NCBI GenBank assembly: GCA_041739675.1
Contig: JBGSNL010000061.1
Coordinates: forward strand, 1 to 16,034
Origin: a bacterium
GTDB taxonomy: Bacteria > UBA10199 > 2-02-FULL-44-16 > DYJF01
Direction: 5' to 3'
DNA: 16,034 nucleotides
The notes below the pieces were generated by a model, which saw only the letters and a program-made list of their open reading frames with translations, had not been told where the DNA came from and ran no database searches. Below are positions 7,952-15,923 of the stretch, piece after piece. Both the position numbers and the translations under genes were made by a program. Position 1 is the stretch's first letter, and every line of letters starts with the position of its first letter.

Positions 7952-9166
7952 GTGAGAAAGCGTGTACTTTTCGTCGTGGCGGTTGCCTGCCTCGCGGGCG
8001 CCGTTCTGGCCGCCATTTCAACTTCACAATATTTGAGAATTCATGAGAAGGGGATGGAGGAGAAAAGTTTTTGCGCGATCTCCGAAGTCATAGATTGCGA
8101 CATCGCCTCCGCCAGCTCGTATTCAAGTGTCGCCGGGATGCCAATTGCATGGTTCGGGCTTGTCGCCTATCTGCTGATCGGCAGCATGGCCCTCTTCGGC
8201 GCGATATCCAAAAAAAATCGGAAGTCCTCCGTCGCCGTCGCGTGGTTTCTCTCAATCTTCGCGCTTCTTTATTCTATAAGGATGGCCTACCTTCTCTTCG
8301 CGGTGCTGGGCGTTGCCTGCATTGAGTGCATCGGGATGTACATTGTCAATGTCATCGCCGCCTTCGGGCTCTGGCGCGCGCTTAATACCCCTCTGAAAGA
8401 TACGGGAAAATTCTTTTTGGATTACATCAGGGCGGTTTTCAAAAAACCTTCAGGTCTTGGCTTTCAACCGAAGATCGTGGCGCACGCATTCGTCGTAATA
8501 GCCGCGTTCGGTATCGGCGCGGCCGTCATCTACAATTTGCAGGGAGGACCGGCGCAGAAGGGCGTGACGCTCAAGGAAAAGATAAACGCACACTACATGC
8601 AGTCGCTGTATGATATTCCTGTGAACCCTGACTGGCCGGTGTGGGGAAACCCAGATGGTGCGGTCACGATAATCGAGTTTTCGGATTTCGAATGCCCGTT
8701 TTGCAGACTCGCCGCTTTCAACGTCAGGCCGTATCTTCAGGAGTTCAAAAAAGACGTGCGGTTCTATTTTGTGAATTATCCGCTCGACCAGTCGTGCAAC
8801 CCTTACCTTGAGCATCCGATGCACATGAACGCCTGCTTGGCTGCATATGCCGTCGAGTGCGCCAACAAGCTCGGCGATTTCTGGAGCTTTCACGACGACG
8901 TTTTCAAGTTGAAGAAAAACATGAACAGGGATGCCATCATCGGCCTTGCCGAAAAAAGGAACTGGAACCCGCAGGAATTCGCGGCATGCCTGGATTCGGA
9001 GGAGACAAAAAAACGAATTCTCGCCGATATCGAAGCCGGAAAGAGGGCCTACATATCGGGTACGCCTTCTCTGATAATCGATGGAAGAAGATTGAAGTAC
9101 TGGCGGGATCCCAATTTTCTGCAGGCGGTCGTGAAAGAGGAAAAAAAGCGCGCAAAGTCCCGCTAG
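7952..9166 (+). CDS. Vitamin K epoxide reductase (VKOR) domain fused to a DsbA-like thioredoxin-fold domain
   Basis: GTG start after GGGGAG. VKOR loop cysteines (FCAISEVIDCD..SSYS, GMPIAWFG), a CIEC redox motif in the transmembrane region, and a C-terminal DsbA domain (VTIIEFSDFECPFC, YPL, cis-Pro motif GTPS). Confidence 0.9.
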   Translation: MRKRVLFVVAVACLAGAVLAAISTSQYLRIHEKGMEEKSFCAISEVIDCDIASASSYSSVAGMPIAWFGLVAYLLIGSMALFGAISKKNRKSSVAVAWFLSIFALLYSIRMAYLLFAVLGVACIECIGMYIVNVIAAFGLWRALNTPLKDTGKFFLDYIRAVFKKPSGLGFQPKIVAHAFVVIAAFGIGAAVIYNLQGGPAQKGVTLKEKINAHYMQSLYDIPVNPDWPVWGNPDGAVTIIEFSDFECPFCRLAAFNVRPYLQEFKKDVRFYFVNYPLDQSCNPYLEHPMHMNACLAAYAVECANKLGDFWSFHDDVFKLKKNMNRDAIIGLAEKRNWNPQEFAACLDSEETKKRILADIEAGKRAYISGTPSLIIDGRRLKYWRDPNFLQAVVKEEKKRAKSR

Positions 9167-10383
9167 TCGTTGACGTGGCTTTGCGCCTCTATGGATTCGT
9201 AGAAGTTTATTGCCTTTCTCACATATCTTCTCTTGTCGGCGTAGTCCCCAGGGAAGAAGCTCCGTTTAAATCCGTATATAATGATGTCTTTCAAGCGCTC
9301 CGGCGAGATGTCAAAACCCTTCACTGCGAGGTCGATCTCGTTCGTCACCGTCGTATTTGAAACCAGTCTGTTGTCCGTGCAGAATGTCGTTGAAAGACGA
9401 TTCTCAAGCATCTTTCTGAACGGATGGTGTGAAAGCTCTTTCAAGTGCGGGATCGTCTGAAGATTCGAAGTCAGGCATATCTCTATGGTGATGCGCCTGT
9501 CCGCGATATGCTGCGCAAGATCTTTCACGTATTTTTCTTTTTCATTTTCGCCGGGCAGGTCGATCATATCTACGTCGAAAAGATGAGTGCCGTGTCCTAT
9601 GCGGTCCGCGTGGCAATCGGTGATGGCTTGGAAGATGGAGGCCGGCCCATATGCCTCGCCGGCATGGACCGTTTTCTTCAAAAAACTCTTGTTTGCAATG
9701 TCGTAGGCCTGGCGATGATCCTCCGCTGGGTAGCCCTTTTCCGCGCCCGCCAGATCCACCCCCACAACAGGTACGCCGTCAGAGTCGCGCGATCTTATTA
9801 GTGCGCGCGCAAGATCTTTTGACGCCAGCCCGAAGAGCTCTTCCTGGGGCATGTCTCGATGGAGTCCTATGAGGGTGCGGTAGTAGCCCGAAAAATGCTC
9901 GTTGAACATCCTGAGCGCGCAGCCGATGATCCCGTATTCGAACGGTGGCTCTCCCCCTTCCACGATCTCGGTGCGGGAATTTATCTCCTTCTTCGCGCGG
10001 TCGAAACCGCGGGCCACGCTTTTCAAAACTTCATCGATGGAAAGTGCCGCATTGACGTGAAGCTGCGGCGCGAATCTCGGTTCGATGTAGCGCACCCCCT
10101 CCGCGAATGCATCCTGTCCTAGTTCGTACGATATCCTTTCGATCGCCTCCGGCGTCTGCATCACCGCGCACGTGTATTGAAAACCCTGAAGGTATTCCAC
10201 AAGATCCTTGTAACGGTCCTTGAAGACAAGCTCTTTCAAGCCCTCCACCGTGTGCGAGGGCAGAGCGATCTTCTGGCTCTTGGCAAGCTCTATCAGCGTG
10301 GGGAGTCTCAAGCTCCCGTCAAGATGGCAATGGAGATCAGTCTTGGGGAGTTTTTTGATAAGATCTTTGGTGAGAATTTTCAT
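9163..10383 (-). CDS. add: Adenosine deaminase family amidohydrolase (406 aa)
   Basis: True start is ATG 10383 (MKILTKDLIKKLPKTDLHCHLDGSLR), overlapping the porB stop as ATGA. Motifs YIEPRFAP, GVDLAGAE, TVHAGEAYG, RIGHG, EICLTSN and TDNR. The exact substrate is uncertain. Confidence 0.88.
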   Translation of the reverse strand: MKILTKDLIKKLPKTDLHCHLDGSLRLPTLIELAKSQKIALPSHTVEGLKELVFKDRYKDLVEYLQGFQYTCAVMQTPEAIERISYELGQDAFAEGVRYIEPRFAPQLHVNAALSIDEVLKSVARGFDRAKKEINSRTEIVEGGEPPFEYGIIGCALRMFNEHFSGYYRTLIGLHRDMPQEELFGLASKDLARALIRSRDSDGVPVVGVDLAGAEKGYPAEDHRQAYDIANKSFLKKTVHAGEAYGPASIFQAITDCHADRIGHGTHLFDVDMIDLPGENEKEKYVKDLAQHIADRRITIEICLTSNLQTIPHLKELSHHPFRKMLENRLSTTFCTDNRLVSNTTVTNEIDLAVKGFDISPERLKDIIIYGFKRSFFPGDYADKRRYVRKAINFYESIEAQSHVND

Positions 10384-11288
10384 TGGGCCTGTTTTTTCAA
10401 CTGTTCCCAATTGTGATCTACCTGGCGCTGGATCTCGGCCACCTGCTCTTCTTTGAGATGTCTGAAGCGCCCCTGGATCTTCAAATATTCTTTGACCGGG
10501 ATGCCCTTCGGCTCGATGTTGATGACCGTGCGTTCGCCGTCGAAGATTTCGTACATCGGAAAGAGTTTCGATTCGACCGCGCGCCGCATCGACTCGACGC
10601 TTAACTCGCTCGCAATCTTCCAGCCGGCCGTGCACGAACAGAGAATGTGTATGAATCGGAACCCCTTGATTGTCTTGGCCTTGGCGAACTTTGCCATAAG
10701 ATCGTGCGGATATCCGGCCGATGTCGTGGCGACATATGGTATTTTGTGGGCCGCCATGATCTGGTCGATCGGTTTTTTGGGGACCATCTTGGGATAGTCG
10801 GTGGGAGTTGTCGTCGTCCACGCATAGAGTGGAGTTGCCGAGGAGCGCTGTATGCCCGTGTTCATGTAGGCTTCGTTGTCGTAGCAGACGCAGATGACGT
10901 TTTCATTTCTTTCCGCCGCGGCGGAAAGAGATTGAAGGCCGATATCGAACGTTCCGCCGTCCCCGGCCCAGCCCATTATAGTTGTTTCGGTTTTCCCCTG
11001 AATATCTAGCGCCGCTCGCACGCCTGAAACTGCAGCGCCGGTGGTTTCGAACGCCGTGTGCATGAGCGGAAGCTTGAGATTCGAGTAGGGGAAAGGTCCC
11101 GGGATAACCGCCCAGCAACAAGCCGGGATGACGACGACAGTGTCCTCTCCCAATGCCTTGAGTGCGAGTCTCATAGCGATAGCCGCTCCGCATCCGGGAC
11201 ACGCAAGATGCCCCGACGTCATTAGTTCGGATGCCGGATACTGCTGCGGCGCAACGCCTTGGCCTGATGTTCTGGGATCTGTTATCAT
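10380..11288 (-). CDS. porB: 2-oxoacid:acceptor oxidoreductase beta subunit (TPP-binding; PorB/VorB type)
   Basis: GHLACPGCG, ACC, TPP motif GDGGTFDIG...DNEAYMNTGIQRS and YLKIQGRFRHL. ATG 11288 overlaps the alpha subunit stop (ATGA). Confidence 0.9.
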   Translation of the reverse strand: MITDPRTSGQGVAPQQYPASELMTSGHLACPGCGAAIAMRLALKALGEDTVVVIPACCWAVIPGPFPYSNLKLPLMHTAFETTGAAVSGVRAALDIQGKTETTIMGWAGDGGTFDIGLQSLSAAAERNENVICVCYDNEAYMNTGIQRSSATPLYAWTTTTPTDYPKMVPKKPIDQIMAAHKIPYVATTSAGYPHDLMAKFAKAKTIKGFRFIHILCSCTAGWKIASELSVESMRRAVESKLFPMYEIFDGERTVINIEPKGIPVKEYLKIQGRFRHLKEEQVAEIQRQVDHNWEQLKKQAQ

Positions 11289-12460
11289 TTCTTGAGCCCC
11301 ACCCAAACCGGAGCGCTGCCCGGTTTATCCTGATCTTTTGCCGATTGATACGCTTCGATTATAGTGTCGACGGTGATGTCTCTGCCGCCAAGCCCCACAA
11401 GGAAGCTGAAGATTTCGGGGATCCTGGGCTGTCCGCACAACGCGGCTCTTATCTCCTGCGCCCAGATTCCGCCGGCCCCGTGGCTGATATTGCGGTCGAG
11501 AACCGCTATCTTCTTCACGATTGTCCTGCCGTCAACGTTTGCGATCGCGTTTTTAATCTCCTCGACCGGGAACGGCCTGAACATGCGGAGCTTCAGAAGG
11601 CCCACCTGTTCGCCTTTTTCGCGAAGTCTGTCCACGGCAACGCGCGCCGTTGAGGTCATCGAGCCGCTTGTCACGAGAACGATCTCCGCGTCTTCGGTTC
11701 TGTAAGTTTCTGCTATGTCGTGCATGCGCTTGAAACGTTTTGCATAATCCTTTGCGATCGCGCGGTATGTATCCCTCACCTTGGCGTGCGCCTCTTCCAT
11801 TATATATCTGAATTCCATGTAGTGTTCCGGGCCGGTGAGCGCGCTGAAGGTGAGAGGATTTTTAGGATCGAGAGTGAACTTGGCTTTTCTGGGAGGAAGG
11901 AACTTGTCGACATCGTCCTGATCGGGAATATCCACCGCCTCGTACGTGTGCGAAAGAATGAACGCGTCGTATATGACCATAACGGGAAGATCGGTCTCCT
12001 CGGCGAGTTTGAATGCCATGATCGTGGCGTCTAAAACCTCCTGGTTCGTTTCACAGTAGATCTGAATCCAGCCTGTGTCCCTTTGCGCGAGCGAATCTGT
12101 CTGGTCGCTCCAGATGGACCATCCCGGGGCCATTGCGCGGTTGACATCGGTCATGACGATGGGGAGCCTCGCGTATGCCGCCCAGAATAAAAGTTCGTGC
12201 ATCAGGGCGAGCCCCTGCGCGGACGTCGCGGTGAACGTGCGCGCTCCCGCCTGCGACGCGCCGATGAGGCAAGCCATTGCGGAGTGCTCCGATTCCACTT
12301 TTATAAACTGGGCCTTGAGCCGCCCGTCGGCGCACATCTCCGAGAGCTCCTCCACGATCTGCGTCTGCGGCGTGATTGGGTAGGCCGATATCACCTGCGC
12401 GCGCGCCAGGCGGACGCCGTGAGAGGTGGCATGATTTCCCATCAGGACTTCTTGCATCAT
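11285..12460 (-). CDS. porA: 2-oxoacid:acceptor oxidoreductase alpha subunit (PorA/VorA type)
   Basis: MGNHA, AYPITPQT, VESEHSAM, TATSAQGLALMHE, RDTGWIQ, RMFRPFP and GLGGRD. Start is ATG 12460 or 12457, after GGAG. Confidence 0.92.
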   Translation of the reverse strand: MMQEVLMGNHATSHGVRLARAQVISAYPITPQTQIVEELSEMCADGRLKAQFIKVESEHSAMACLIGASQAGARTFTATSAQGLALMHELLFWAAYARLPIVMTDVNRAMAPGWSIWSDQTDSLAQRDTGWIQIYCETNQEVLDATIMAFKLAEETDLPVMVIYDAFILSHTYEAVDIPDQDDVDKFLPPRKAKFTLDPKNPLTFSALTGPEHYMEFRYIMEEAHAKVRDTYRAIAKDYAKRFKRMHDIAETYRTEDAEIVLVTSGSMTSTARVAVDRLREKGEQVGLLKLRMFRPFPVEEIKNAIANVDGRTIVKKIAVLDRNISHGAGGIWAQEIRAALCGQPRIPEIFSFLVGLGGRDITVDTIIEAYQSAKDQDKPGSAPVWVGLKK

Positions 12461-14262
12461 ATCTCCGTGGGTTCTTCTATCAGTTCCAGCGCGGCCCGCG
12501 GGCACTCGTGCACGCAGACGCCGCATCCTTTGCAATATGTGAAATCAAAGGCATATCCGCCCGTGACCTTCGCGATCGATATGTCCGGGCAATAGATAAA
12601 GCAGTTGTCGCACTCCGTGCAGCGGCCGCAGTGGAAGCAGCGCGAAAGCTCGTCTGAAACGACGTCTTTCGACGGGGCCTGGTGCACTTCAGAGAAGGGG
12701 CGGGTGCCCAGCCTGTCTTCAACGGAGCGCATCGGATATTCGTTCGGTTTCGATTCCCAGAAATAGGCTGTATTGAGATCCTCGAATTTCGCGATCCTGT
12801 TCTTGGCAACGACGACGGGAGATGCTTCGGGCGTTTTTTCCGCCTCGAGATAGCGAAGGTAATCTCCCATCCTCACCGAATTCGAATCGCCTATTTTTAT
12901 TTTTTGGAACACCAGATCGAAATCGTCTTTTCTGAAAAAACAATCGATCGCGATAGCGGATCTTTTTCCCGCAGCCATTGCGTCAACCGCCGTGCGTGGC
13001 TGATTTATGAAATCGCCGCCGGCGAAGACGTTGTGCCATTCGGTCCTGCCGCCTTGCTTTGTTGCAAGCGCGCCCTTGTGAATGGCCAGGGCGGATGGGA
13101 TGATGGCGGTCTCAATCTCTTCTCCCACCGCGGAAAGAACCGAGTTGGCCTCAAATGTGATCTCGGAGCCCGGGACCGCGACGGGCGATCTTCTTCCGGA
13201 TTCGTCGGGTTCGCCAAGTTTCGCGCGGTCGCATACGAGCCCTGCGGCTCTGCCGTCCTTCACGACGACGCTCTTCGGCATGACGAGAAATTCGATCTTG
13301 ATGCCTTCGGCCAGCGCCTCTTTCACTTCCGATTCGAATGCCGGCATCTCTTCGCGCGAGCGGCGGTATAAAACCGTGACGTCGCCTCCGAAGCGCTTGG
13401 CGGTCCGGGCGGCGTCGATTGCCGTGTTGCCGCCTCCAACCACAAGCACCTTCTTGCCGAGCGGGGGCGCCTTGCCCTGCGCCGTGAGATCAAGGAATGT
13501 GAGCCCGGGCATCACGCCTTCCGTTTTTTCGTCTGGAATTCCAAGCGCGCGGCTCCTGTGAGCGCCTATCGCGAGATATATGGCGTCGTATTCCTGCCGT
13601 AGCATCTGCATGGCCGCCGCGTCTCTTATCGATTTTCCGAACTGGAACTCTACGCCCATTTTTTTCAGGCGGTCTATTTCGATATCGAGAACGTCTTTGG
13701 GAAGGCGGTACTCCGGAATTCCGTAGCGTAACACTCCGCCGCCTCTGGCGTTTCTTTCCATGACGACTGCCTTATGGCCAAGCCTTGTCAGATGATAAGC
13801 GCATGCCAATCCCGCCGGTCCGCTGCCAACGATCGCCACTTTTTTCTTCGACAGCGTCCTGAATGGTTTTGCAACCGGAGGATTCGCACCAACCTTGTCG
13901 GCCAGAACACGCTCTAACATCTGGATAGATATGGAGCCGCCAAGCTCTTTCCTGTTGCAGCCCTCCTGGCACGGATGGAAGCACACGCGCCCCATGAGGG
14001 CGGGAAACGGGTTTTCAATAATCGCCTTCTCCCACGCCTCTTCAACTTTGCCCTTCTCAAGAAGTTTGATCCATGCCTCGATGTTGTTTGCGGTGGGGCA
14101 TGACGCCTGACAGGCGGGTATCTGATCGACGTACTGCGGGCGAAGATAGCGCCACGTGCCTGTTTCGTTCCACGTCATGAGCGCGGCGGACATCGTGCAA
14201 TAGGGCATTTCAGAAGCGCCCTTGAAAGTCGTAGGTTTCGGATGTTTTTTCGTTTCCTTCAT
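12457..14262 (-). CDS. GltD/NfnB-like FAD- and NAD(P)-binding Fe-S oxidoreductase fused with a PorD-like 2[4Fe-4S] domain
   Basis: PACQASCP and NPFP..MGRVCFHPCQEGCNR Fe-S motifs; FAD motif VAIVGSGPAGL; GGVLRYGIPEYRLP; second dinucleotide motif VVGGGNTAIDAAR followed by YRRS..EMPA; VFAGGD; C-terminal RCFHCG, CTECDNCFIYCP and YCKGCGVCVHECP. GAGGTG RBS. Confidence 0.88.
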   Translation of the reverse strand: MKETKKHPKPTTFKGASEMPYCTMSAALMTWNETGTWRYLRPQYVDQIPACQASCPTANNIEAWIKLLEKGKVEEAWEKAIIENPFPALMGRVCFHPCQEGCNRKELGGSISIQMLERVLADKVGANPPVAKPFRTLSKKKVAIVGSGPAGLACAYHLTRLGHKAVVMERNARGGGVLRYGIPEYRLPKDVLDIEIDRLKKMGVEFQFGKSIRDAAAMQMLRQEYDAIYLAIGAHRSRALGIPDEKTEGVMPGLTFLDLTAQGKAPPLGKKVLVVGGGNTAIDAARTAKRFGGDVTVLYRRSREEMPAFESEVKEALAEGIKIEFLVMPKSVVVKDGRAAGLVCDRAKLGEPDESGRRSPVAVPGSEITFEANSVLSAVGEEIETAIIPSALAIHKGALATKQGGRTEWHNVFAGGDFINQPRTAVDAMAAGKRSAIAIDCFFRKDDFDLVFQKIKIGDSNSVRMGDYLRYLEAEKTPEASPVVVAKNRIAKFEDLNTAYFWESKPNEYPMRSVEDRLGTRPFSEVHQAPSKDVVSDELSRCFHCGRCTECDNCFIYCPDISIAKVTGGYAFDFTYCKGCGVCVHECPRAALELIEEPTEI

Positions 14263-14846: not shown

Positions 14847-14874
14847 ACATTATCTTTTTTAAAGTGTATGTCAA
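14847..14874 (-). promoter_or_regulatory. Putative sigma70 promoter for the oxidoreductase operon
   Basis: On the minus strand: TTGACA (14874-14869, overlapping the DUF362 stop codon), 16 nt, then TAATGT (14852-14847), 26 nt before the porC ATG. Confidence 0.5.
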
Positions 14875-15923
14875 CCCACCGTTATGAGCTCGTAGGAAGG
14901 GGTTCCCAGCCCCATTTTCTCGGCGTGAGCGAGCTGCACGGTGTAATCGATATTGGGGTGGGCCTTTTTGAGGACGTCGGTTGCATCCGCCTTCAGAACA
15001 AGATCCAGCGCCGCGCGGTCAATGGCCAGAGGATCGGCCGACGCAAGAATTCCGATATCTTCCAGAAGCGGTTTTTCGCCAAAACTTATGCAGTCGCAAT
15101 TGGGCGTGATGTGATAGACAAACGAGACGCAGAAGATTTTTTTATTCTTCACCGCGCCCGCCGCGTACTCCGCAAGTTTCTCCTGCACGTTTTTTCCGGG
15201 CTCGCTCCATTTGATGCCGAGCGCTTCTTCCGCGCACGCTATTATACACTCTCCGCAACCGGCGCATTTTGCCGTGTCGAGCTTTATCTTTCCGTCGACG
15301 ACCATGAGTGCGTCCTGCTGGCATACCTCGACGCACGCCCCGCAACCCGTGCAATTTTTTTCCGTGACGGCCGGCGAAACAGTGGAGTGCATCTCAAATT
15401 TTCCGAGGCGCGCGCCGCATCCCATTCCCAGATTTTTGATGGCGCCGCCGAATCCCGTGAGCAGGTGCCCCTTGAAGTGGGAGACGGCTATTATCGCGTC
15501 CGCATCCGCTATCCCCCGCGCGATCTTCACCTTTTTGAAATGACGGCCGTCAACTTCAATTTCCTCATAGGGTTTTAGGGCGTCTGCGTCGGCTATGACG
15601 ACGGGCACGCTCAGTTTTTCCTCCGAAAATCCGTGCTCGGCCGCAACGGCCAGATGGCCTGCCGTGTTGTTCCTCTCGCCGTGGTAGATCGTGTTCGTAT
15701 CGGTCAAAAATGGATGTGCCGTCGCTTCATGCGCCATCTTTATGACAGGTTCAAAATATACGGGCCTGATGTAACCGTCGTTTCCCTTTTCGCCAAAGTG
15801 CGTCTTGATCGCCACCGACTCATCTTTGCCTAGTATGTCCGACAAACCGGCCACCTCAAGCAACTCAGAAAGCTTTTCTTTCCGCGCCCACGGCAAAAAC
15901 CAAACCTTTGACCTTTTGTTCAT
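14871..15923 (-). CDS. DUF362 domain protein with inserted 2[4Fe-4S] ferredoxin domain
   Basis: VAIKTHFGEKGN, PFLTDTNTIY.G.R, SHFKGH..TGFGGAIKNLGMGC..R.GK..MH, ferredoxin motifs CTGCGACVEVC and CAGCGECIIAC, then ITPNCDC and DIGILASADPLAID. Confidence 0.88.
   Translation of the reverse strand: MNKRSKVWFLPWARKEKLSELLEVAGLSDILGKDESVAIKTHFGEKGNDGYIRPVYFEPVIKMAHEATAHPFLTDTNTIYHGERNNTAGHLAVAAEHGFSEEKLSVPVVIADADALKPYEEIEVDGRHFKKVKIARGIADADAIIAVSHFKGHLLTGFGGAIKNLGMGCGARLGKFEMHSTVSPAVTEKNCTGCGACVEVCQQDALMVVDGKIKLDTAKCAGCGECIIACAEEALGIKWSEPGKNVQEKLAEYAAGAVKNKKIFCVSFVYHITPNCDCISFGEKPLLEDIGILASADPLAIDRAALDLVLKADATDVLKKAHPNIDYTVQLAHAEKMGLGTPSYELITVG

Follow-up and report, generated by a model that had tools for sequence, protein, structure and literature searches.

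The locus analyzed here raises the question of what a flavoprotein of 601 residues does at the place in a pyruvate oxidoreductase (por) gene cluster that belongs to the delta subunit. It lies on contig JBGSNL010000061.1 of the bacterial assembly GCA_041739675.1 (GTDB lineage Bacteria; UBA10199), which was analyzed over its 16,034 nucleotides; this whole stretch is called the window below. An original prediction, made from the sequence of the window, had placed at 12457..14262 a delta subunit split by a permuted GltD/NfnB-type flavoprotein module. We found in this position an open frame of 601 residues between porC and porA, on the minus strand, which the prediction had not given. In our reading, to which we assign a probability of roughly 0.6, the product is the delta subunit of a four-subunit pyruvate/2-ketoisovalerate-type oxidoreductase, with an inserted, permuted cassette and NADP+ as its predicted built-in acceptor. 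We refer to this protein as the fused delta.

The two ends of the fused delta had been taken for the two halves of PorD, and on this point the searches with hidden Markov models (HMMs; TIGR02179 and NF007202), hhalign and an HMM of the arm applied to the whole family all agree. The motifs on which that claim was built were all located in the translation: TGTWRYLRP at residues 34-42, YRRS at 299-302, RCFHC at 541-545, and the two cysteine motifs of the C-terminus, CTECDNCFIYCPD at 548-560 and YCKGCGVCVHECP at 576-588. TIGR02179 scored 61.5 bits against a cut-off of 60.05, with only positions 23-77 of its 78 covered, and its match, like that of NF040684, was confined to residues 542-597. Aligned with hhalign to 12 canonical PorD proteins from the source genome and its relatives, the C-terminus fell on positions 40-93 (probability 99.7, E 2.8e-25). 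The VorD model NF007202 matched both ends: the first 60 residues, searched alone, at positions 6-50 (E 0.038), and the C-terminus at positions 51-103. By their profile coordinates the two matches are complementary and collinear. In the fused delta, the arm and the ferredoxin domain stand about 500 residues apart, and the TGxWR...P arm is thus present but not contiguous with the rest of PorD.

For the N-terminal arm, the results came mostly from the family. In hhalign the family N-terminus aligned with positions 18-53 of canonical PorD (P 6.4e-5), and the HMM of the canonical arm scored at least 5 bits in 104 of 105 family members, against 1 of 525 shuffled N-termini. The same score was reached by 3 of 57 cassette proteins that are not of the delta type, two of them being delta-type genes cut by contig ends. 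Given the results of NF007202, hhalign and the arm HMM on both halves, the split of PorD is real and family-wide; for the arm, the evidence is weak in any single sequence, yet complementary and spread over the family. A single-sequence search of the first 60 residues against the PDB gave only chance-level rows (E 0.16-0.82), among them snake muscarinic toxins and 9bt4_G at E 0.82. No delta subunit of a pyruvate:ferredoxin oxidoreductase (PFOR) was among the fold matches listed for the fused delta, and these lists are filled by the flavoprotein and so are uninformative on the termini.

The two ends were also brought together in a structure prediction of four chains: alpha, beta, the C-terminal part of delta (residues 536-601) and, as the partner whose docking was scored, the stretch of delta from residue 16 to 50. 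The arm was predicted to contact the ferredoxin domain, and its docking had an ipSAE of 0.77, while the best of three controls had 0.01. Among solved complexes, 116 of 157 reach a mark of this level; among mismatched pairs, 2 of 215 do. The docking runs agreed in at least 94% of contacts, with a partner pLDDT (predicted local distance difference test) of at least 77. The predicted contacts of arm residues 19-45 are with alpha residues 96-98, 157 and 195-224, with beta residues 24-31 and 63-72, and with the ferredoxin domain at 547-598. This outcome speaks for likeness to PorD and not for binding, and it may go back to the four-subunit PFOR that has already been solved (9bt4).

Between the two PorD halves lies what is, from its profile matches, a circularly permuted Fe-S/FAD/NAD(P)H module of the GltD/NfnB type, about 500 residues long (FAD, flavin adenine dinucleotide). 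The presence of such a module had been proposed, and it is borne out by the Pfam families Pyr_redox_2 (residues 140-432, E 1.6e-33) and Fer4_20 (residues 49-124) together with the fold matches described below. The Fer4_20 match covers profile positions 30-108 of 113, i.e., the start is missing. A counterpart of the missing start was found at the other end of the module: hhalign placed residues 501-547 on positions 10-54 of 11 canonical GltD/NfnB N-termini from relatives, up to and including the RCxxC motif (probability 97.2, E 2.8e-11), and the reversed control of this alignment gave P 0.38. Residues 47-165 aligned with canonical positions 53-173 (E 7.8e-38), and the counterpart of residues 510-545 in a phmmer alignment was the segment 12-45 of P. 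furiosus NfnL. When residues 495-550 were scanned alone against Pfam and NCBIfam, the start of Fer4_20 was not reported; the profile-profile comparison did find the segment. This displaced segment confirms the circular permutation, first suggested by the lack of the opening CxxC and by the position of RCFHC.

The model of the fused delta built with AlphaFold 2 had a mean pLDDT of 91.0 and a predicted template modelling score of 0.89, with lower pLDDT (64-78) in the arm. Among solved chains, its best matches in sequence were the large subunits of the Stn/NfnABC enzymes, which are StnC of Sporomusa ovata (8oh5), Nfn-ABC of Caldicellulosiruptor saccharolyticus (9bov) and NfnABC of Thermococcus sibiricus (9n5u): 9n5u_A scored 531 bits (profile 16-545), 9bov_A 500 bits and 8oh5_C 443 bits. 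The NfnB/NfnL chains scored lower (418 and 416 bits), and their alignments stop near residue 446, whereas 9n5u_A aligns through residue 554. The fold comparison gave the same picture. Residues 41-569 of the model superposed on residues 94-608 of 9bov_A (VIA-align; Z 40.3, root-mean-square deviation 2.6 Å, 479 residues aligned), and residues 35-588 on 8oh5_C (Z 38.2, 4.2 Å, 487 aligned); the match to NfnL (5jca_L; Z 31.5, 2.1 Å, 400 aligned) covered model residues 45-445. By these ranges, the fused delta and the Stn/NfnABC cassettes have in common the return linker, the displaced RCxxCG segment and the beginning of the cluster domain that comes next.

The residues expected to hold the cofactors are strongly conserved. 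Across 105 aligned homologues, with a mean column identity of 53%, the cassette cysteines C51, C55, C94, C98, C102, C542 and C545 and the eight cysteines of the ferredoxin motifs are invariant, as are E117 and R186 and most positions of the two Rossmann glycine motifs. We placed the clusters of the cassette by alignment to dihydropyrimidine dehydrogenase (profile position 49 corresponding to chain residue 85), using what we take to be the ligand assignment in that enzyme. From this alignment we infer that C542, C545, C51 and C102 bind a distal cluster, and that C55, C94, C98 and E117 bind a cluster proximal to the flavin. C545 is only three residues away from C548, with which the ligands of the PorD ferredoxin domain begin, so the distal cluster and one of the PorD clusters would lie close together. 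The YRRS motif, which had been read as pointing to NADP(H), recurs as YRR(S/T) in 5jca_L, 8oh5_C (StnC) and 9bov_A, all of them relatives that bind NADP(H), and supports an NADP(H) preference of the cassette by homology only.

Taken together, we propose that the fused subunit takes the place of PorD on the alpha-beta-gamma core, where the arm and the ferredoxin domain would seat it on alpha-beta in a PorD-like manner. Electrons would pass from the thiamine pyrophosphate (TPP) intermediate to the beta cluster and to the two PorD clusters, and then through the distal and the proximal cluster of the cassette, which would make five [4Fe-4S] clusters in all. The FAD would gather two electrons and reduce NADP+. 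Pyruvate oxidation has a potential of about -500 mV and NADPH one of -320 mV; the transfer from 2-oxoacid to NADP+ would be strongly downhill, and the enzyme therefore practically one-way. It would act as a ferredoxin-independent 2-oxoacid:NADP+ oxidoreductase, with NADPH produced without free ferredoxin. The functional part of the original prediction had offered two branches: the direct wiring of 2-oxoacid oxidation to NAD(P)+ is plausible in view of the cofactor motifs and homology, and bifurcation is the less likely one.

The conservation of the cassette also bears on whether it takes part in catalysis at all. It could instead use NADPH for the reductive activation or protection of the Fe-S chain, or work as a redox sensor, with ferredoxin as the true acceptor. 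Nothing specific favours this idea; the ferredoxin domain that is kept and a second, canonical por system in the genome are both in keeping with it. A full five-cofactor module would be costly for repair, and the identity between homologues and the invariance of the ligands argue against it as well. In addition, 8oh5, 9bov and 9n5u are, according to their entry titles or to the available passages on StnC (PMC10482914), transhydrogenases with NAD(P)H as a substrate. We consider a non-catalytic cassette very improbable.

Conservation at the bifurcating site of NfnB, on which the second branch of the functional prediction depends, was found only in part to be informative. E117 is kept as in NfnB, aligning with the Glu of its “LER” motif at the position of the cluster ligand, where StnC (K170), 9bov_A and 9n5u_A carry Lys; this part favours the idea that the FAD of the cassette acts as the bifurcating FAD of NfnB. 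The complex might then, for instance, run an NADPH-driven reductive carboxylation with the second electron going to an acceptor of higher potential, or the reverse. R186 is also kept, aligning with R201 of P. furiosus NfnL (residue roles according to the available part of PMC10482914) and with R239 of StnC; since StnC does not bifurcate, this residue does not discriminate between the two types. The closest relatives of the cassette, by sequence and by fold, are those of the Stn/NfnABC enzymes, and the StnC flavin is described as non-bifurcating in the passages available from the same source. A single cluster chain leading out of the flavin is visible in the sequence. Genes of the NfnA/PyrK type (PF10418) were absent from the 16-kb contig, and the two found in the genome lie on other contigs (C64 and C72); NfnA-type genes were not screened for at the 34 related places described below. 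We therefore regard bifurcation or confurcation as improbable. Slightly less probable still is a ferredoxin-free, NADPH-driven pyruvate synthase, which would send one electron down the five-cluster chain for CO2 fixation at about -500 mV and the other to an acceptor of higher potential; a bifurcating site on a 2-oxoacid oxidoreductase is conceivable because the NfnB-type, Glu-ligated cluster next to the flavin is retained.

Aiming to place the fused delta among known proteins, we compared it with family models. It matched NF009410 (PRK12771, “NAD(P)-binding protein”) over residues 23-597, at profile positions 22-565 of 566, with 543.2 bits against a cut-off of 516. By this score it is a member of a family that is catalogued under generic names only; the names given to members by the Joint Genome Institute are “2-oxoacid:acceptor oxidoreductase delta subunit” or [quoted passage not shown]. 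The NF009410 homologues match the fused delta in length and motifs. Among 93 genomes of the source phylum, 17 had a match above the cut-off and 19 a match reaching profile positions 564-566; none of 14 control genomes passed the cut-off. Beyond this phylum, our searches recovered homologues from Thermodesulfobacteriota, Planctomycetota, Gemmatimonadota, Verrucomicrobiota, Actinomycetota and further phyla. The suspicion that the architecture is widespread and poorly characterized was therefore well placed, given the 19 of 93 genomes, the many phyla and the generic family names.

The source genome is a draft of 88 contigs, in which the window is contig C38, and a fusion of separate gltD-like and porD genes by mis-assembly or by a wrong gene call has to be considered. 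The uninterrupted frame of 601 residues argues against it, as does the recurrence of the architecture at 34 places in many phyla and in 105 aligned database proteins, and we give such an artefact almost no weight. A simple end-to-end join, moreover, cannot give an arm upstream and a ferredoxin domain downstream of the cassette, and an artefact of that kind is ruled out.

The gene neighbourhoods were compared at 34 distinct delta-type places, 12 in relatives of the source organism and 22 in named genome contigs. Delta-type genes adjoined por-type subunits at 29 of them. The gene stood between gamma and alpha at 22 places, had only alpha downstream at 2 (on short contigs), and followed gamma-alpha-beta at 5 (Actinomycetota and a Sterolibacterium); it stood beside a distant alpha with 28% identity at 3 places and without a por-type neighbour at 2. 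In L094 (Gemmatimonadota), L112 (Acidobacteriota) and L114 (Propionibacterium ruminifibrarum), the arm is degenerate and lacks TGxWR, and the alpha subunit is 28% identical to that of the window; these genes may represent the design in a kor-type form, for 2-oxoglutarate. In two proteins from metagenome-assembled genomes, L061 (Solibacteraceae) and L066 (Betaproteobacteria), the cassette is combined with a two-cluster domain that has a degenerate first motif, closing in C-N or C-T rather than C-P. Both lack a PorD arm and a por-type neighbour, yet fall inside the delta-type clade.

A tree built from 115 cores, both cassette and canonical, united the permuted cassettes in one clade of 103 rows, with a support of 97. 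Of the 34 delta-type cores, FastTree grouped 33 in a subclade with a support of 93 and put L045 elsewhere, and a quick IQ-TREE tree needed three label changes for the delta type. One clade of 38 delta-type rows was not rejected by the approximately unbiased (AU) test (p 0.551). Motif patterns defined the delta-type classes, and the AU group received two more rows after the tree had been seen, which is why a single origin of the PorD-inserted cassette is stated here as not rejected.

The features of the fused delta and its neighbouring genes are listed in the table below. On the minus strand, the order is DUF362/2x[4Fe-4S], porC, fused delta, porA, porB and the deaminase-family gene, all co-oriented. 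The stop codon of porC abuts the ATG of the fused delta (TAGATG), and at the three following junctions (fused delta/porA, porA/porB and porB/deaminase-family gene) the ATG of the downstream gene overlaps the stop codon of the upstream one (ATGA each time). From the sequence of these junctions, porC, the fused delta, porA and porB form a single translationally coupled unit, to which the deaminase-family gene also appears to belong. The numbers of promoters and terminators predicted by a scan did not exceed those in shuffled sequence. A search for sequencing runs listed carriers among DNA runs and none among RNA runs. Neither the deaminase-family gene nor the DUF362/Fer4 gene appeared as a kept partner at any of 38 delta-type loci (tblastn; these correspond to the 34 places, and many flanks have only about 1.5 kb). 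The gene for the VKOR and DsbA/thioredoxin-like fusion is convergent with the deaminase-family gene.

Table. Features of the fused delta and genes of its neighbourhood, in window coordinates.
Feature	Size or residues	Position	Strand	Details
Fused delta gene	601 aa + stop	12457..14262	-	ATG 14262 to TGA 12457, uninterrupted frame
PorD-type N-terminal arm	residues ~20-46	14125..14205	-	invariant T34, G35, W37 (NxTGTWRYLRP)
Cassette Fe-S domain	residues 47-124	13891..14124	-	C51, C55, C94, C98, C102, E117; without the opening CxxC
FAD and NAD(P)H Rossmann domains	residues 140-446	12925..13845	-	GSGPAGL 146-152, GGGNTA 276-281, YRRS 299-302
Return linker	residues 447-509	12736..12924	-	absent in NfnB/GltD, present in Stn/NfnABC cassettes
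Displaced GltD/NfnB N-terminal segment	residues 510-546	12625..12735	-	ends R541 C542 xx C545 G546
PorD 2x[4Fe-4S] ferredoxin domain	residues 547-601	12460..12624	-	two CxxCxxCxxxCP motifs, 548-559 and 577-588
DUF362 protein with inserted 2x[4Fe-4S] domain		14871-15923	-	50 bp upstream of porC
porC, gamma subunit	185 aa	14263..14820	-	TIGR02175 PorC_KorC 199.2 bits (cut-off 81.1); Pfam POR E 5.2e-38
porA/vorA-type alpha subunit	391 aa	11285..12460	-	Pfam POR_N E 6.6e-76, and PFOR_II
porB/vorB-type beta subunit, TPP-binding	302 aa from ATG 11288	10380..11288	-	Pfam TPP_enzyme_C
Adenosine/AMP-deaminase-family gene		9163-10383	-	Pfam A_deaminase E 2.3e-71
VKOR domain fused to DsbA/thioredoxin-like domain	404 aa	7952-9166	+	

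One database gene call for the fused delta (P0002, 583 residues) begins at M19. We prefer the first ATG, at 14262, as the likely start, because homologues keep residues 9-20, among them those just upstream of M19; the region concerned is 14208-14262 on the minus strand. For the alpha subunit, PorA_Arch scored 476.8 bits and VorA (PRK08366) 436.3 bits, each under its cut-off, and for the beta subunit the Vor-type model PRK11864 scored 385.7 bits and PorB (PRK11865) 360.3 bits, both below the cut-off of 405. The two subunits thus stand between the por and vor models and under all equivalog cut-offs, and the substrate is therefore not assigned here as pyruvate or as a branched-chain 2-oxoacid.

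Our search of the rest of the genome identified two systems of relevance. Contig C43 carries a second, canonical porCDAB with an ordinary PorD of 99 residues (L004 1480-1779), whose alpha subunit is more por-like than that of the window (PorA_Arch 490.7 and VorA 329.4 bits). Contig C58 (L122 883-2994) encodes a protein of 703 residues made of a [2Fe-2S] domain, a permuted GltD cassette 42% identical to that of the window, and a Nqo3-type ferredoxin domain, and a NuoF-like gene adjoins it (L122 3019-4182). This domain composition makes it a short large subunit of the Stn/NfnABC type, one that lacks the FdhF-like domain. It scored 522.7 bits against NF009410, also above the cut-off of 516, and consequently this model does not separate PorD from NuoG-like hosts.

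Several points weigh against the reading of the fused delta as the subunit of an NADP+-reducing enzyme. The scores of alpha and beta fall short of every NCBIfam equivalog cut-off. The residue at position 117 is the Glu of the bifurcating NfnB and not the Lys of Stn, which fits a low-potential or bifurcating role equally well. With a canonical porCDAB and a Stn/NfnABC-like subunit in the same genome, NADPH would be obtainable from ferredoxin anyway, and the need for a fused enzyme is not obvious. Finally, the ferredoxin domain might still offer a docking site to free ferredoxin.

This last point leads to the alternative that the fused complex serves free ferredoxin and NADP+ alike and partitions electrons between them according to supply; it would then be an ordinary 2-oxoacid:ferredoxin oxidoreductase with a built-in ferredoxin:NADP+ reductase. 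The whole two-cluster domain of PorD is retained with its eight cysteines invariant, and cassettes of the same type occur on ferredoxin-reducing machines (Stn, in the available passages of PMC10482914). Similarly, korAB, bzdV and an NADP-dependent oxidoreductase of Azoarcus are presented as a ferredoxin-regenerating system in the accessible parts of PMC5736913 and PMC8163825. The genome already has a canonical porCDAB of the ferredoxin type, which speaks against a second route to ferredoxin, and we hold this partitioning to be unlikely, although it is the rival that we take most seriously.

To our knowledge, 2-oxoacid:ferredoxin oxidoreductases are regarded as strictly dependent on ferredoxin or flavodoxin. 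If the reading with NADP+ as the acceptor is true, many anaerobes and some actinobacteria would obtain NADPH straight from pyruvate or branched-chain 2-oxoacids. Reconstructions of redox and carbon flux from genomes would then change, since genes of this kind are at present interpreted as “glutamate synthase” or as “ferredoxin oxidoreductase delta”.

Compared with PorCDAB/VorCDAB enzymes such as the PFOR of Methanosarcina acetivorans (9bt4), the system described here has like gamma, alpha and beta subunits, gene order, delta arm and two-cluster domain, and a like predicted docking of the arm. It differs in the delta subunit, which has about 85-105 residues in those enzymes and 601 in the fused delta, with two extra [4Fe-4S] sites, FAD and an NAD(P)H site, and in the acceptor, which is ferredoxin there and predicted to be NADP+ here. 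A PFOR review of November 2026 (PMC13768988) distinguishes, in its available text, one-, two-, four- and five-subunit forms; in that text no form has a built-in pyridine-nucleotide module, and the terms “glutamate synthase” and “GltD” are absent. Neither a description of a PorD interrupted by a GltD-type module nor a functional study of the NF009410 family was found in the literature searched, with most subscription journals and supplements being outside its coverage. NfnB/NfnL (4ylf_B, 5jca_L) and GltD resemble the cassette in fold, in the FAD and NADPH motifs, in the position of the Glu ligand and in the Arg near the flavin. In contrast to the permuted fused delta, they have the canonical order with an N-terminal RCxxC, no return linker or PorD parts, and NfnA as the partner.

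A chain from a PFOR-type core through a flavoprotein to a pyridine nucleotide exists in the pyruvate:NADP+ oxidoreductase of Euglena and Cryptosporidium and in the phenylglyoxylate:NAD+ oxidoreductase PadEFGHI. Their flavin modules are unrelated to the cassette or separate, being a C-terminal fusion of the P450-reductase type in Euglena and a separate subunit in Pad, and neither enzyme is known to have a cassette inside PorD. The Pad models were weaker NCBIfam matches. The 2-oxoglutarate oxidoreductase (KGOR) of Azoarcus evansii, studied by Ebenau-Jehle, Boll and Fuchs in 2003, is reportedly a TPP- and Fe-S-containing 2-oxoacid oxidoreductase that reduces NADP+. It is the nearest functional precedent, but of the kor type and specific for 2-oxoglutarate; the delta-type genes L094, L112 and L114 may belong to this type. 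The “alpha subunit” of this 2-oxoglutarate:NADP+ oxidoreductase is placed among GltD-like proteins in the available part of PMC10134865.

The closest solved relatives are the Stn/NfnABC large subunits. Their cassettes share the permuted topology of the fused delta, entering at PCxxxCP and leaving, after the return linker and RCxxCG, into a cluster domain. The hosts are different: in Stn/NfnABC the host is NuoG/HoxU-like, with a [2Fe-2S] domain and NuoE/F-like partners, while here it is PorD with por genes as neighbours, and the fused delta had no Fer2_4 or NuoG match in Pfam or NCBIfam. In the passages available from PMC10482914, StnC is described as NuoG-like, its GltD domain spanning residues 102-565 as a cassette inserted in a host Fe-S protein, where this domain is the entry site of NADPH and feeds the cluster chain; modular evolution through domain insertion is discussed there. 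Our results show that one permuted NADPH cassette has been reused as a plug-in before the cluster domains of different hosts, which in the source genome are PorD and a NuoG-like protein.

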